From contig JAPDJO010000028.1 of NCBI GenBank assembly GCA_029259115.1, forward strand, positions 1 through 64,000: DNA of 64,000 nucleotides. The letters are read 5' to 3'. Within the stretch, counting starts at the first letter, position 1. The number at the start of each line of letters is the position of its first letter. The position numbers were made by a program, and so were the translations under genes. This document shows positions 40,454 through 48,650 of this stretch, one piece after another. The DNA is from Thermoplasmatota archaeon. Its GTDB lineage: Archaea; Thermoplasmatota; E2; DHVEG-1; B18-G2. The notes under the pieces are model-generated. The model did no database searches. It was not told where the DNA came from and was given only the letters and a program-made list of their open reading frames with translations.

Positions 40454-43716
<3,263 letters not shown>

Positions 43717-43849
43717 ATTATCACCATATTTTTATCTATTTGTGTTTTTTAAATTTGGTGGTTGAAATATCTTAATTACTCTTTGCACTTTTTGGAATTT
43801 TTTGGAATAAAGAAATATTTATTACTAAGATAGGTAGATTTCTAATAAC

Positions 43850-45187
43850 ATGTCAGATGATCTCGACATCCTGGGAGTGCTACCATCAGATAGGAAAAAA
43901 CTGGAATCCATGGGAATAACTAGGATAGAGCAGATCGCATTACTTACTCCTCAACAACTAGGAATGGGAAAAAGTAAAGGAGAGAGTTTGATACGAAGGG
44001 CTCACAACATAATAGCAAGTAGAAGCATAGAAGATATAGAGATAGGAGAGAAAGAGATCAGAGTTAAAGTTGATTCTTTAAGCAAACCCGTCAAAAAATC
44101 TGTTCTTTCTGTTCTTGGAGTATACGAGCTTCATCCAGGTAGCGTGATGGTCTCAGAGAAAGGAAACGTTATTTACATATACAAGAAGTCTCCGGTTTTC
44201 TCAAAGATCGTGGAAAATGCAGAGATACAGAAATCTATGATAGAGGAGAGGAGACAAAACGAGCTCAAATCAAAGGGTTTGACATTAGACTTAGAAGAAA
44301 TCAGAGATTTTGCAATAAACAGAGGATTTGAAGGATTTTGGAAGAACGTATTCAGTGAGATAAAAGGAAATGAGATAATGAAAAAATCCCTATCCATAAG
44401 CTTATTCTCGACTTTCGAAGAACCTGTTCATTCCCTGATAATAGGCGAACCAGGGAGCAGCAAGACTTTGGCAAAGGAGATAATAGAATCAACTTTCAAA
44501 GATATATCAACGATAGGAGCAAACACCACTAGAGCGGGCTTGGTTTGCAATCTTGGAACAGGAGATCTTGGAGCTCTTCCTCATTCTCACAATAAGATAG
44601 TATTGGTTGATGAGTTTGACAAGATACCAGAGAGTGATATAGAGTATTGCTATGAGCTTCTCTCCAATGGCAGATGTAGTGTTCACTCGTCTAGAATTCA
44701 TACCAATATAGAGAGTAAATTTATCATGATAGCTTTTGCAAATCCAAAAAAAGGTGTGTTTAAAGGAAATCCAATGGATGAGATTCCTCTACCGCCTTTG
44801 CTTGTAAGTAGATTTGCACTGATTGTCAAAACAGAGAATATAAGTGAAGAAGATAGAAAGGCTCTCTTCAAGGAGAAATTCTACGGAAGATCTGAGATAA
44901 GGGTAAAACCAGAATACTATGACCAGTGGATAAAGTTGTCTAGGGAATTTTATCCCAATATTACTGCAAGTGAAAGAGATGTTGATAGATACATAGACAA
45001 GGTGTCTAAGTTAGTAGAGGTATATCAATCTACAAATCTGAGGAGAGATTTGAGAATGGGAGACTACATACGAAGAATTCCCTTCTCCATAGCGAGAGCT
45101 GGCTTTAGAGATATCGACTCTGATATATTAAGAGAAAGCGAGAATATTTTAGAGGAATCAATAAGAAGTTGGGAGGAGAATGGATAA
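43850..45187 (+). CDS. MCM-family AAA+ ATPase core fused to an N-terminal helix-hairpin-helix (RadA-N-like) domain
   Basis: IKGNE, HSLIIGEPGSSKT (Walker A), LVDEFDKI (Walker B), AFANP and LVSRF (Arg finger). The N-terminus LGVLPSDRKKLESMGITRIEQIALLTPQQL-GMG resembles an HhH domain. Confidence 0.8.
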   Translation: MSDDLDILGVLPSDRKKLESMGITRIEQIALLTPQQLGMGKSKGESLIRRAHNIIASRSIEDIEIGEKEIRVKVDSLSKPVKKSVLSVLGVYELHPGSVMVSEKGNVIYIYKKSPVFSKIVENAEIQKSMIEERRQNELKSKGLTLDLEEIRDFAINRGFEGFWKNVFSEIKGNEIMKKSLSISLFSTFEEPVHSLIIGEPGSSKTLAKEIIESTFKDISTIGANTTRAGLVCNLGTGDLGALPHSHNKIVLVDEFDKIPESDIEYCYELLSNGRCSVHSSRIHTNIESKFIMIAFANPKKGVFKGNPMDEIPLPPLLVSRFALIVKTENISEEDRKALFKEKFYGRSEIRVKPEYYDQWIKLSREFYPNITASERDVDRYIDKVSKLVEVYQSTNLRRDLRMGDYIRRIPFSIARAGFRDIDSDILRESENILEESIRSWEENG

Positions 45188-45671
45188 AAGGATTCTAGAT
45201 ATATTTTACTCTAGAGATCGAAATGTGGCTGAGATAACAATGCAGGCAATATATAGAGAATATCAAGATATACTAGAACCAAAAATCGTGGGAATGCTTG
45301 AGTTAGATAAGAATTGTTTTTCTGAGGAGAGAAATCAATACGATGCCGATCTCCTCTTGACCAAATTGAGGAAGAATAAAAATCTTTTTCTCTGGGTGGT
45401 TCACGATGACATCTTTTCAGATGATCTCAATTTTGTATTTGGATGTGCGATTCCTCTCAAGGGAGCTATACTATCAACATTTCGCTTGAGATCAAAGGAT
45501 CTGATAGAAAAAGAAGCAATCCATGAGATAGGTCATGTTTTGGGATTAACTCATTGTAAAAACGAATGTGTCATGATGTTCTCCAACTCCTTATATGAAG
45601 CTATCTTAAAACCGAAAAATCTATGTGATTCTTGTAGAGAAAAATTGAGAAAGGTCTATGGCTATGTTTAA
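45180..45671 (+). CDS. Archaemetzincin-like Zn protease (M54)
   Basis: [36 protein letters not shown] and LCDSC. Confidence 0.9.
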
Positions 45672-46287
45672 GAAGAAGCACTTAGCCAAAATACTTTCCA
45701 ATCTAGAAGGATTTGACAAACCAAAGGTGGAACTGGAACAATACGAGACGCCTGGCGATGTTGCTGCAGAGCTACTTTGGACAGCAGATATGAAAGGGAA
45801 AATCAAAAATAGAACCGTGGCTGATCTTGGCTGCGGAACAGGTATACTATCTATAGGTTGCGCCCTGCTTGGTGCAAAGAAAGTTTATGCCGTGGATATA
45901 GATAGAGAAGCTATAACTATAGCAAAAAGGAATGCTGTAAAAATGGGTTGCTCCGATAATATCGATTTCTTCGAAATGGATGTGTCAGGTTTTGACATCA
46001 AGGTCGATACTGTTGTTATGAATCCACCTTTTGGATGTCAATCTAGAAACGCTGATAGACCTTTTCTTCAGAAGAGCTTTGAAATCAGTAACGATGTTTT
46101 TTCTCTACATCTAGCCAAGGAAGAAGTTGAAAGATTTTTGAAGAGATACTCAGAGGAACTCGGATTTAGAGCACATTTCATAAAGAAAGTGAAAATGGAA
46201 ATACCGGCAAAGTTCTTCTTTCACAAAAAGAGAATAGATAGAATAGATGTGAATATAATTCATTTCGAGAGGATAAAGGATGTATGA
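45658..46287 (+). CDS. METTL5-family N6-adenine RNA methyltransferase
   Basis: LEQYETP, DLGCGTG and VVMNPPFG motifs. Confidence 0.9.
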
Positions 46288-46999
46288 CCCCATAGAGCTG
46301 TCAAAGAAAACCGAAAAGATCGTTGTAAAGGATGGAAAGAAAAAGTATCACAGATTTAGATTTACCAGATTCTATGGTTGCTCTGCAACAGCAGACTCTG
46401 TAGGATGTAACTTGAGATGTATATTCTGTTGGTCTGATAGAGCCGTGAGATTGCCGAACAAGATGGGCAGATTCTACTCTCCTGATGAAGTAGTAGATAA
46501 GCTTATAGAGTTAGCTAATAACAATAAATGCAAGATAATAAGGATATCTGGAGCTGAACCAACTATAGGAAGATCTCATCTTTTAGCTCTTTTAGATCTA
46601 GTAGATGCATACGATAAGATCTTTATTCTTGAGACTAACGGGATATTGCTGGGGGCAGATAGAAAATATGTCGAGGAGCTTTCGGGCTATAATAGATTAC
46701 ATGTAAGAGTATCTTTAAAGGGTTGCAGTGAAGAGGAGTTTAGATTTTTGACCAGAGCTAAAAATGGTTTTTCCTATCAGATAAGATCTTTAGAGTATCT
46801 ATCTGACTATGGAGTATCTTTCCATCCATCTGTTGTATCCACGAGGGGAGAAGAAGAAAAGATAATAGAAACTCTCGAGAATATTGGTATAAGGAGGAAT
46901 GTAATAGAATGGGAGAAACTAAAACTCTACCCTCCAGTTAAGGAGAGATTAAGGAGGTTAAATTTGTTGGATAAACTTGCTGACGTATGGGAAGATTGA
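46280..46999 (+). CDS. Radical SAM protein (activase-like archaeal family)
   Basis: [26 protein letters not shown] and FILETNG. Confidence 0.9.
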
Positions 47000-48227: not shown

Positions 48228-48614
48228 TCATTTTGATTCGCAGTATCTTTTCATAACAGCTTTTCTTGCCGTCTCAGAGTTAAACCTATGTTGTTTTTTC
48301 TTATACTTCAAAAACTCGAGCATTCTCTGTGCCTCCTCCTTGCGATTTTTCAGATAGGGAATCACATTAGTAAGTAGATGATAAAGTTCTACTCTGCTAT
48401 GAACCAGCCAAGTGTAGACGATTTTTCCGTTTCTCACGGTTTCTTTCACGCGGCCCATGTTTGTTAATCTGTAAAGTAATCTGATTATCGAACCATCTAC
48501 GGTTGATATCTTGAATGTGTGAAAATGGTGACCTTTTTCATTAACTCTATAGTAAAAACAGCCTCTCTTATCTATAAAAGCAGCTATGATTGGAGCAGTA
48601 TTGCTATCTATCAT
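48228..48614 (-). CDS. Stand-alone LAGLIDADG-like protein with degenerate motif
   Basis: IIAAFIDKRGCF helix; G.V......YTW.V; L..VIPYLKNRKEEA pattern typical of the LAGLIDADG fold. Confidence 0.7.
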   Translation of the reverse strand: MIDSNTAPIIAAFIDKRGCFYYRVNEKGHHFHTFKISTVDGSIIRLLYRLTNMGRVKETVRNGKIVYTWLVHSRVELYHLLTNVIPYLKNRKEEAQRMLEFLKYKKKQHRFNSETARKAVMKRYCESK

Positions 48615-48650
48615 CAAATATAATATATACTTTACTCATAATAAATTTTA

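Follow-up and report, generated by a model that had tools for sequence, protein, structure and literature searches.

Textbooks describe MCM as the helicase that drives replication in archaea and eukaryotes, and the additional copies seen in archaeal genomes have for the most part been attributed to mobile elements or regarded as relics. Here, we analyzed a stretch of 64,000 nucleotides (nt) from a Thermoplasmatota archaeon (GTDB lineage Archaea; Thermoplasmatota; E2; DHVEG-1; B18-G2), namely positions 1 to 64,000 of the forward strand of contig JAPDJO010000028.1 in NCBI GenBank assembly GCA_029259115.1, which is called the window below. An intact open reading frame (ORF) at 43850..45187 on the forward strand, with an ATG start and 445 codons, encodes a short MCM-type ATPase of 445 amino acids, hereafter “sMCM.” We are confident that sMCM is a divergent, lineage-specific MCM paralogue composed of an (HhH)2 domain (HhH, helix-hairpin-helix), a small alpha/beta domain, a linker and the full ATPase tier of MCM. 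A reading made earlier from the letters of the window (the sequence-only reading) had proposed a non-replicative remodelling ATPase with an unusual architecture. Our own reading of the whole, in which this architecture would serve a DNA-tethered, non-replicative ring motor in recombination, repair or fork processing, has in our estimate an even chance of being right.

The closest described systems are the replicative MCMs (S. solfataricus and P. furiosus MCM, PDB 4R7Y, 6MII and 8EAG, and Mcm2-7), whose ATPase tier, from the linker between the N- and C-terminal tiers (N-C linker) to the lid, is homologous to that of sMCM. The shared elements are a Walker A motif without Gly before Lys, a DEFDK Walker B motif, the sensor-1 Asn, an SRF arginine finger, a sensor-2 Arg acting in trans, the pre-sensor-1 (PS1) beta-hairpin and, in predictions, an MCM-like subunit interface. 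Unlike the replicative MCMs, sMCM has neither the helical, zinc (Zn) and OB N-terminal tier nor the C-terminal winged helix, and its PS1 basic residue is shifted by two positions. RadA, Rad51 and Dmc1 likewise begin with a domain of five-helix (HhH)2 fold. However, the head of sMCM sits on an AAA+ motor and not on a RecA core, its first hairpin reads G-V-x-P instead of G-V-G-P, and AF1548 and the AR2 domain of NusA match it as well as or better than RadA/Rad51 does.

Three further systems resemble sMCM in plan. MCM8 and MCM9, like sMCM, provide a second MCM-family motor that is kept by selection beside the replicative one, and they may be functional analogues; MCM9 appears among the PDB sequence matches of sMCM (7wi7_B, 8.5e-6). 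Unlike sMCM, however, MCM8/9 have retained the complete N-terminal tier of MCM along with its winged helix, and they have no specific relationship to sMCM. In BrxL, especially Type-4 BrxL, and in the prophage protein BcMCM, a non-MCM N-terminal DNA-binding or primase-like region is likewise joined to an MCM-family AAA+ domain: the available part of one report describes N-terminal DNA-binding domains with an MCM-family AAA+ domain in Type-4 BrxL (PMC12839542), and that of another describes the same plan of N-terminal region and MCM-family AAA+ domain in BcMCM (PMC2715239). sMCM differs from both: its N-terminal domains are others, it lacks a Lon-like domain and it does not lie in a defence or prophage context. 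Finally, RuvA-RuvB also combines (HhH)2 DNA-binding modules with a hexameric AAA+ pump for double-stranded DNA, the (HhH)2 modules being located in RuvA domain II. In sMCM, unlike RuvA-RuvB, the parts are fused in one chain and the AAA+ domain belongs to the MCM clade and not the RuvB clade. As a functional analogue, RuvA-RuvB is purely hypothetical. To our knowledge, archaea have no RuvAB. When the ESM Atlas was searched with the MCM clusters skipped, the best score was 0.87, under the level of 0.9 used for a lead.

The features of the gene and its protein are given below; all lie on the forward strand, and “own MCM” is the canonical MCM encoded by the same genome.

43850..45187, forward strand: whole sMCM gene (ORF; PF00493, 64.3 bits; 435 homologues at E ≤ 1e-3, with lengths of 349-466 amino acids among the 120 listed)
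43850..44029, forward strand: five-helix (HhH)2 domain of the RadA/Rad51 N-terminal-domain type, residues 1-60 (AlphaFold2 [AF2] model, VIA-align, hhalign)
44027..44185, forward strand: beta-hairpin/helix/beta-hairpin domain, ACT/ferredoxin-like and family-specific, residues 60-112 (AF2 model)
44186..44356, forward strand: long helices corresponding to the MCM N-C linker and pre-AAA+ helix, residues 113-169 (hhalign; model helices 117-141 and 148-167)
44357..44884, forward strand: AAA+ core of MCM type, residues 170-345, with IKGNE at residues 171-175 in the ORF translation (Pfam, PDB sequence matches, Foldseek)
44444..44467, forward strand: Walker A motif GEPGSSKT, residues 199-206, with K205 (32-sequence alignment; aligns with own-MCM K331)
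44546..44572, forward strand: remnant of the helix-2 insert, residues 233-241 (alignment gaps; pLDDT, the predicted local distance difference test score, < 50 at 236-241)
44606..44623, forward strand: Walker B motif VDEFDK, residues 253-258, with D254/E255 (invariant; align with own-MCM D390/E391)
44672..44713, forward strand: PS1 beta-hairpin, residues 275-288 (model strands 275-279 and 284-288; alignments)
44732..44746, forward strand: sensor 1 AFANP, residues 295-299, with N298 (A297, N298 and P299 invariant; N298 aligns with own-MCM N434)
44807..44815, forward strand: arginine finger SRF, residues 320-322, with R321 (aligns with own-MCM R459)
44897..45175, forward strand: pre-sensor-2 helix and lid domain, residues 350-442 (alignment to own MCM)
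45041-45058, forward strand: sensor-2 motif RRDLRM, with R402 (invariant; aligns with own-MCM R567)

The MCM-type motifs had first been noticed in the letters of the window, and every string quoted at that time occurs in the translation. The Pfam MCM P-loop model PF00493 matched residues 151-336 of sMCM with 64.3 bits against a cut-off of 23.3 (E = 1.1e-17), and the remaining sMCM-family proteins among the 28 scanned (n = 11) scored 52-65 bits. Other Pfam matches were far weaker (Mg_chelatase, 24 bits over 75 residues; AAA_5, under its cut-off), and the NCBIfam whole-protein MCM model NF040949 gave 47.4 bits against a cut-off of 940. The best 60 PDB sequence matches were all members of the MCM family (archaeal MCM, Mcm2-7 and MCM9), a likeness that chance does not explain. 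In an hhalign comparison, a profile of 32 sMCMs matched a profile of 19 canonical MCMs at 99.9% (E = 2.4e-34, 321 columns), with residues 113-441 of the 445-residue sMCM corresponding to residues 233-607 of the 698-residue own MCM. This alignment spans the N-C linker, the AAA+ core, the pre-sensor-2 helix and the lid, and sMCM therefore represents the whole MCM ATPase tier. The protein ends four residues past the lid, where the winged helix of MCM would start. Pfam searches with the full protein and with the termini alone gave no MCM_N, MCM_OB or winged-helix matches, in agreement with the earlier claim that these domains are absent; the N-terminal 150 and C-terminal 111 residues, searched separately, gave chance-level matches only, and in the Pfam scan of the protein the MCM_lid model did not detect the lid. 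The full-length AF2 model (32-row alignment) had a mean pLDDT of 81 and a predicted template modelling score (pTM) of 0.71, and its best Foldseek matches in the PDB were Mcm2-7 subunits and the S. solfataricus (Sso) and P. furiosus (Pfu) MCMs (E ~1e-15, ~340 columns, 4-5 Å).

When the family profile was compared with single templates, hhalign gave 97.7% for the own MCM (E = 2.1e-12, 271 columns), 3.4% for a MoxR protein of the same phylum (E = 0.013) and 0.4% for a BrxL of the same phylum (E = 0.13). A MoxR identity of the core was ruled out by the second of these values together with the tree described below, in which MoxR is split off with a support of 100. For Mg-chelatase, the other family named as a possible destination of the core, a search of 41 phylum genomes at E ≤ 1e-20 returned no outgroup, and one of the own genome recovered none apart from LonB and MCM. 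The core falls with MCM. Neither NCBIfam nor Pfam holds a model specific to the sMCM family or its N-terminal region, and no published description of the architecture was found in a literature search covering main texts readable without subscription. We class sMCM as an MCM-family protein whose domain architecture is new and whose DNA-contact elements are altered.

The catalytic residues are conserved throughout the family. Across 32 aligned sMCM sequences, K205, D254/E255, N298, R321, R402 and R409 were invariant, as were G199, E200, G202, S203, S204 and T206 of the Walker A motif; R409, which lies in the lid, aligns with own-MCM R574. The arginine-finger motif reads SRC in most members, and an invariant Ala follows where MCM has Asp. 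Judged from these alignments, the residues expected to bind and hydrolyze ATP at the inter-subunit site are all kept, K205, D254/E255 and N298 being the cis residues and R321 and R402 those supplied in trans.

The elements that line the MCM pore are altered. The helix-2 insert had been described as shortened, and it is 8 residues shorter than in MCM, with two 4-residue gaps relative to Pfu and Sso MCM and the same gap relative to the own MCM; the stretch concerned, residues 229-243 (AGLVCNLGTGDLGAL), includes the least confident region of the full-length model. The claim that the PS1 hairpin lacks the usual Lys holds for the aligned position, at which own-MCM K416, invariant in 19 MCMs, is replaced by the invariant S280 of sMCM (SVHSSRI, residues 277-283). 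However, a basic residue is conserved two positions further on, since all 32 aligned members have K or R at 282, and H279 and H284 are invariant as well. The MCM-invariant Arg of “RGxIH” has no counterpart in sMCM, which reads EEPVH. These redesigned pore loops, a short insert and a PS1 tip of the form H-S-x-K/R-x-H, imply that the substrate is gripped differently from the way replicative MCM grips DNA.

The N-terminus had been likened to the HhH DNA-binding domain of RadA/Rad51. This was upheld for the fold and may hold for a conserved Lys/Gly/basic triad; the sequence similarity leaned in this direction but was sub-threshold, and the best structural matches were other proteins. The AF2 model of the N-terminal 150 residues alone (33-row alignment) had a pLDDT of 91. 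In a VIA-align comparison of residues 1-60, the best match was the C-terminal domain of AF1548 (Z 9.4, root-mean-square deviation 1.4 Å, 56 residues), followed by NusA AR2 (Z 8.2), the helicase-like domain of PolQ (7.8), yeast Rad51 (7.1), chains of RAD51B/C/D and the XRCC3 complex (6-7), and DisA, UvrC, AlkA and Y-family polymerases (5-6.6), values of a size that is middling for small helical domains. The matches to (HhH)2 domains (AF1548, NusA AR2, Rad51 and its paralogues) spanned 53-62 aligned residues, and Foldseek gave no match to the N-terminal model at E ≤ 1e-3. The residues K17, G44 and R50 of the head were invariant in 32 sequences. According to the available part of one study, all RadA, Rad51 and Dmc1 proteins share three conserved residues that are important for binding double-stranded DNA, namely one Lys in their first HhH plus a Gly and another Lys in the second HhH; Arg can replace the second-HhH Lys, the K60R substitution being tolerated (PMC1964548). 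When mapped through the RadA alignment, K17, G44 and R50 may correspond to this triad. The second small domain, residues 60-112, gave only weak ACT and EIIB matches (VIA-align Z 5-6) and no Pfam match, and is not an OB fold. Several relatives carry further N-terminal extensions of 140-290 residues before the head or the core (P0121, 622 amino acids; P0137, 613; P0140, 479; P0130, 478), and P0130 has a weak B-box zinc-finger match (23.5 bits; cut-off, 24.1).

Complex prediction suggested that sMCM may associate with itself. With three copies of residues 150-445, the score was 0.44 (median of three runs) against 0.00 for the best control; in the calibration, 20 of 30 proteins solved as same-chain pairs attained a mark of 0.44, as did 1 of 23 solved single chains. 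The runs agreed in at least 50% of the contacts, and the partner pLDDT was at least 80. The predicted interface places the P-loop (202 and 206-207) and helix 331-346 against the lid of the next copy (371-408, including R402), which in the model is the trans arrangement of MCM, with the sensor-2 region facing the neighbour’s P-loop. Because MCM rings have already been solved, this result may reflect likeness to them and not independent evidence.

The host genome (1.40 Mb in 94 contigs, 98.7% complete, 5.5% contamination) encodes a separate, full-length MCM of 698 amino acids on another contig, as the sequence-only reading had asked to be verified. This canonical MCM scored 318 bits with PF00493 and has a CxxC...CxxC Zn motif, a full helix-2 insert, a PS1 hairpin with “VAKAG,” SRFD and a C-terminal extension; sMCM is 29% identical to it over 188 residues. 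One canonical MCM accompanied sMCM in all five genomes checked. The same genome also contains two full-length RadA-type matches (PF08423, 314 and 305 bits; C41:4240-4956 and C1:101613-102329; L085 and L086) and a RadB-like match (80 bits with PF08423); the second RadA-type match is either a real second RadA or bin contamination.

We analyzed the distribution of sMCM in sequence databases and in sampled genomes. A word-indexed search returned 435 proteins at E ≤ 1e-3, and the 120 listed were 56-100% identical, were named “hypothetical protein” or JGI “Mcm2,” and came from metagenome-assembled genomes (MAGs) of Thermoplasmata or Thermoplasmatota. An exhaustive search of 1.84 billion representatives gave 26 clusters at E ≤ 1e-30, past which the values drop to ~1e-19, where the usual MCMs of ~650 amino acids begin. 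Among one genome per species (185,579 species), 84 stretches had a relative, and the 80 loci kept for context were all titled as MAGs of Thermoplasmat- (with any ending), “Euryarchaeota,” “Methanobacteriota” or “uncultured archaeon.” When 301 genomes of the phylum were sampled, 41 of them carried sMCM, always as a single copy (41/41). These were all four genomes of the window’s own family (f1), 26 of the 35 in another family of the same order (f2), all nine of a family in the same class (f29) and the single genome of a family in another class (f11, ~50% identity); the other sampled families had none (e.g., 0/11, 0/10, 0/36, 0/42, 0/21 and 0/24). No relatives were found in 2.9 million viral contigs. 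The sMCM of the window was 57, 57, 60, 56 and 50% identical to five relatives, and the replicative MCM of the same five genomes was 69, 67, 64, 62 and 51% identical. By these identities, the constraint on sMCM is nearly as tight as that on an essential replication protein.

A maximum-likelihood tree of the ATPase tier was inferred from 59 rows and 318 columns (LG+C20+F+G4 with posterior mean site frequencies [PMSF]; support from the Shimodaira-Hasegawa-like approximate likelihood ratio test [SH-aLRT]). The rows comprised 23 canonical MCMs, 13 of the full-length sMCM representatives, 16 further short proteins of MCM-like type and 7 MoxR proteins; BrxL was left out as unalignable, the hidden Markov model (HMM) of the sMCM core scoring negative on it. 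The 13 sMCMs formed one clade (support 100) on a long stem (length 1.44), all MCM-like rows were split from the seven MoxR outgroups (support 100), and a 25-row canonical clade (95) excluded the sMCM family. The family paired with the non-canonical proteins P0149, P0165, P0162 and P0186 (support 90, unstarred), which have the same 8-residue-short helix-2 insert. However, because the branches are long, this placement is unsafe. An approximately unbiased (AU) test did not reject joining sMCM to the lineage’s own MCM group (log-likelihood difference 21.0, p = 0.149). Since the free tree puts sMCM outside the canonical clade and the AU test does not reject an origin from within, sMCM may have arisen by an old duplication in the lineage or may have arrived from elsewhere. 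The four paired proteins are 378-609 amino acids long, with a Walker A motif of the form “G(N/E)PA(S/T)VK(S/T).” P0165 had no relative in viral contigs, and P0149 matched only sMCMs and canonical MCMs, with no orthologues, in the 301 genomes.

We consider the following mode of action. sMCM would assemble into an MCM-like homo-oligomeric ring, its (HhH)2 heads would tether this ring to duplex DNA, and ATP would be used to translocate along the DNA or to remodel it. The work of the ring would lie outside bulk replication, most plausibly in recombination, repair or the processing of forks, in the manner of MCM8/9 or of RuvAB elsewhere, and the replicative job would be left to the separate 698-amino-acid MCM. 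We give the DNA-motor function itself about an even chance. A more specific version, that sMCM is the missing recombination or branch-migration motor of this archaeal class, as a single-chain equivalent of RuvA plus RuvB or an archaeal counterpart of MCM8/9, seems unlikely to us. In that case, a hexameric MCM-type ring would pump duplex DNA while its six RadA-type (HhH)2 heads gripped the arms on either side, possibly swapping with RadA filaments by way of the head they have in common; if true, this would be an archaeal DNA-repair machine of a new class, assembled from parts of replication and of recombination.

Several observations weigh against a DNA motor. The case for DNA as the substrate consists of homology and the HhH fold, and the elements with which MCM grips DNA are those that are altered (PS1 Lys to Ser, an insert shorter by 8 residues and no RGxIH Arg). 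NusA AR2 and also SAM domains (Z 5-6), both of which match the head, bind proteins and not DNA. The similarity of the head to RadA is sub-threshold: hhalign to residues 14-68 of the own RadA gave a probability of 43% (E = 2.6e-4, 35% identity, 55 columns), and a PDB profile search with residues 3-54 returned, below threshold, Dmc1/Rad51 heads in 6 of 12 rows (E 0.25-0.3) and Pol IV in 4 of 12 (E 0.45). Pfam gave no HhH match to the head at E ≤ 10. The calibration of the complex prediction covers neither three copies nor the custom alignment used here. Furthermore, sMCM was not found in 9 of the 35 f2 genomes, so it would be dispensable there, although at least two of the nine have a contig break beside the expected place. 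The hosts are uncultured archaea, with no cultured host known. Finally, no gene for repair or recombination is conserved beside sMCM, where translation and ribosome-biogenesis genes and nadE are the most frequent.

The genes and elements around sMCM in the window are as follows.

43813..43824, forward strand: TATA-like A/T-rich box AAATATTTATTA, 26-37 nt before the ATG (read from the sequence)
45180..45671, forward strand: archaemetzincin-like Zn protease, downstream gene 1 (NF033823, 124 bits, cut-off 145; Peptidase_M54, 63 bits)
45658..46287, forward strand: METTL5 orthologue (rRNA m6A methyltransferase type), downstream gene 2 (PH1948, 1.8e-61; human METTL5, 1.2e-35)
46280..46999, forward strand: small radical SAM protein of 239 amino acids, downstream gene 3 (PF04055, 76 bits)

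The operon of sMCM with an archaemetzincin, a METTL5-like methylase and a radical SAM enzyme, which had been proposed from the letters of the window, is present here, with successive overlaps of 8, 14 and 8 nt. However, it is not a feature of the family: of the 80 related loci, 4 have METTL5, whereas 2 have the archaemetzincin and 2 the radical SAM gene, all within the four closest relatives, these counts being minima since some loci end short downstream. The gap of 133 nt between sMCM and the divergent upstream gene holds the TATA-like box, which is possibly a promoter of sMCM’s own; the leader would then be short or absent. The earlier statement that no mobile-element genes lie nearby is supported for about 5 kb, in which the neighbours are of housekeeping type (Ham1, a Bud32-type kinase, Kae1, a secreted PKD protein, Ldh_2 and aldolases) and by the GC content, which is flat at 0.37-0.40.

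To compare contexts, ORFs were clustered in 79 loci, namely the window and 78 of the 80 related loci, the sMCM ORF being unrecovered in L012 and L048. There was no universal neighbour, and contexts differed between clades. The commonest arrangement was HD - aIF1A - RIO1 kinase - KH (Pno1/Dim2-type) - sMCM - nadE. Here, KH occupied position -1 in 23 of the 79 loci and lay within five genes in 27, Rio1 was found in 28, and nadE followed at +1 in 35, often with an overlap of 4-17 nt. The GTPase HflX was the divergent upstream neighbour in 13 loci, and small recurrent clusters without Pfam families (c10, c15, c18 and c26) were clade-specific. The HD-aIF1A-Rio1-KH array was intact in all five examined f2 genomes without a detected sMCM, which indicates that the array is a unit of its own. 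In three of them, with at least 4.6 kb downstream, neither sMCM nor nadE followed the array, and in the other two the contig ends beside it. Moreover, nadE is located elsewhere in the window’s genome and in four genomes without sMCM. Based on these results, the assignment of a functional partner by synteny was rejected, there being no universal neighbour and both nadE and the array occurring apart from sMCM; we conclude that the linkage of sMCM to its neighbours is positional and identifies no reliable functional partner. The array itself, co-directional and with a two-KH protein of Pno1/Dim2/Krr1 type (many of L016-L084; L118-L125), looks like a stable operon of this order for small-subunit biogenesis or translation.

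This neighbourhood bears on the possibility that sMCM is an RNA or ribonucleoprotein (RNP) remodelling ATPase in small-subunit ribosome biogenesis or translation, whose head would bind RNA or a protein partner. The commonest locus puts sMCM co-directionally just after the array, HflX lies divergently upstream in the 13 loci mentioned, and the METTL5 rRNA-methylase orthologue follows sMCM in the window and in three further loci (4/80). Kae1 and Bud32 lie upstream in the window, and among the structural matches of the head NusA AR2 ranks second. On the other hand, the array stays intact in the five f2 genomes without a detected sMCM, with nothing related to sMCM following it in the three assessable ones, and contexts vary by clade. 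In addition, there are no RNA-helicase or RNA-binding signatures in sMCM, and the detectable relatives of its core are all DNA motors. We regard a role on RNA or RNPs as distinctly unlikely.

Another possibility is that sMCM is not an independent motor but an accessory subunit or regulator of the replicative MCM, such as a loader, a brake or a partner in mixed rings. Its lid and inter-subunit residues are of MCM type, which makes mixed interfaces conceivable, it co-occurs with one canonical MCM in the five genomes checked, its conservation is close to that of MCM, and the AU test is compatible with an origin from the lineage’s own MCM (p = 0.149). However, the catalytic residues are all intact, unlike those of known inactive MCM paralogues such as the M. 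kandleri MCM homologue, and sMCM lacks the N-terminal tier through which it could enter the MCM collar. Self-association is predicted for sMCM itself, and sMCM never adjoins mcm in the 79 loci. On balance, such a role appears decidedly improbable.

A domesticated ATPase of mobile-element or defence origin, related to BrxL or to plasmid or viral MCMs, seems less probable still. The plan of an N-terminal DNA-binding region with an MCM AAA+ domain is common to Type-4 BrxL and BcMCM, as far as the available parts of the two reports describe them (PMC12839542; PMC2715239). PADLOC gave weak partial matches, to PDC-M37B for the window protein (34 bits over 100 residues) and to BrxL for the family member P0141 (24.9 bits), which also scored 26.5 bits with Pfam BrxL_ATPase. 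However, hhalign gave 0.4% against a BrxL of the same phylum, and the window protein had no PF13337 match at E ≤ 0.1, no PADLOC BrxL match, no C-terminal extension and no BREX genes nearby. BrxL occurs in 12 of the 301 genomes of the phylum, and one genome of the window’s own family carries both BrxL and sMCM, which are therefore different genes. A mobile origin is also opposed by the absence of relatives on viral contigs, by the housekeeping neighbours and flat composition, by the single-copy, clade-restricted distribution, and by the P0149-type sister proteins, which have no orthologues in the 301 genomes searched.

The least probable of these alternatives, a protein unfoldase or chaperone-type AAA+ that feeds the adjacent archaemetzincin, is suggested by the 8-nt overlap of the sMCM stop with the archaemetzincin start, by RNA-library contigs that span this junction and by the loss of the DNA-gripping PS1 Lys, but only 2 of the 80 related loci have the archaemetzincin beside sMCM, the head belongs to a type that binds nucleic acids, and we know of no MCM-family member that acts as an unfoldase.

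The RNA-library contigs come from two metatranscriptome libraries of one sediment sample and cover 43939-44685, 44380-44534, 44980-45258 and 45037-45244 at 95-99% identity, the last two crossing the sMCM/archaemetzincin junction. They are a weak hint of transcription, since DNA carry-over is possible and a two-gene contig does not prove a single transcript. Sequencing runs were compared as assembled contigs, so parts of the ORF outside RNA-library cover are uninformative. The two DNA runs compared are labelled as hydrothermal vent and marine sediment metagenomes. One metatranscriptome contig (run X19, depth ~5) lacks base 44609, just inside the Walker B codons; this may be an assembly error or a strain variant, and DNA run X1 covers the site without the deletion.

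Some further observations concern the neighbouring genes. The radical SAM protein at 46280-46999 was under all NCBIfam subfamily cut-offs (the best, MoaA, 46 against 325 bits) and had a weak viperin-type PADLOC match (25 bits). The divergent upstream gene at 41995-43716 on the reverse strand encodes 573 amino acids with a signal peptide, a PKD domain and beta-propeller-like repeats of the “GNxxWxK” type. Related secreted proteins (cluster c2) lie near sMCM in 29 loci, with varying position and orientation. On the reverse strand at 48228-48617, an ORF of 129 amino acids without a Pfam family is 76-82% conserved in three loci (L005, L007 and L008); a LAGLIDADG reading of its “IAAFIDKRG” stretch was rejected, there being no Pfam support.

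In summary, a whole class of abundant uncultured archaea of sediments and vents keeps a second, chromosomal MCM-family motor with a complete ATP site and rebuilt DNA-gripping loops, in which a recombinase-type head stands where MCM has its usual front end. Moreover, sMCM offers a compact protein of 445 amino acids for structural and biochemical work on the MCM tier. Action on RNA or protein, if it turns out so, would be without precedent for an MCM-type motor. Should the substrate be DNA, sMCM would represent a natural experiment in the re-targeting of an MCM motor, and would be a candidate for those archaeal repair or fork-remodelling steps whose motors are uncertain.

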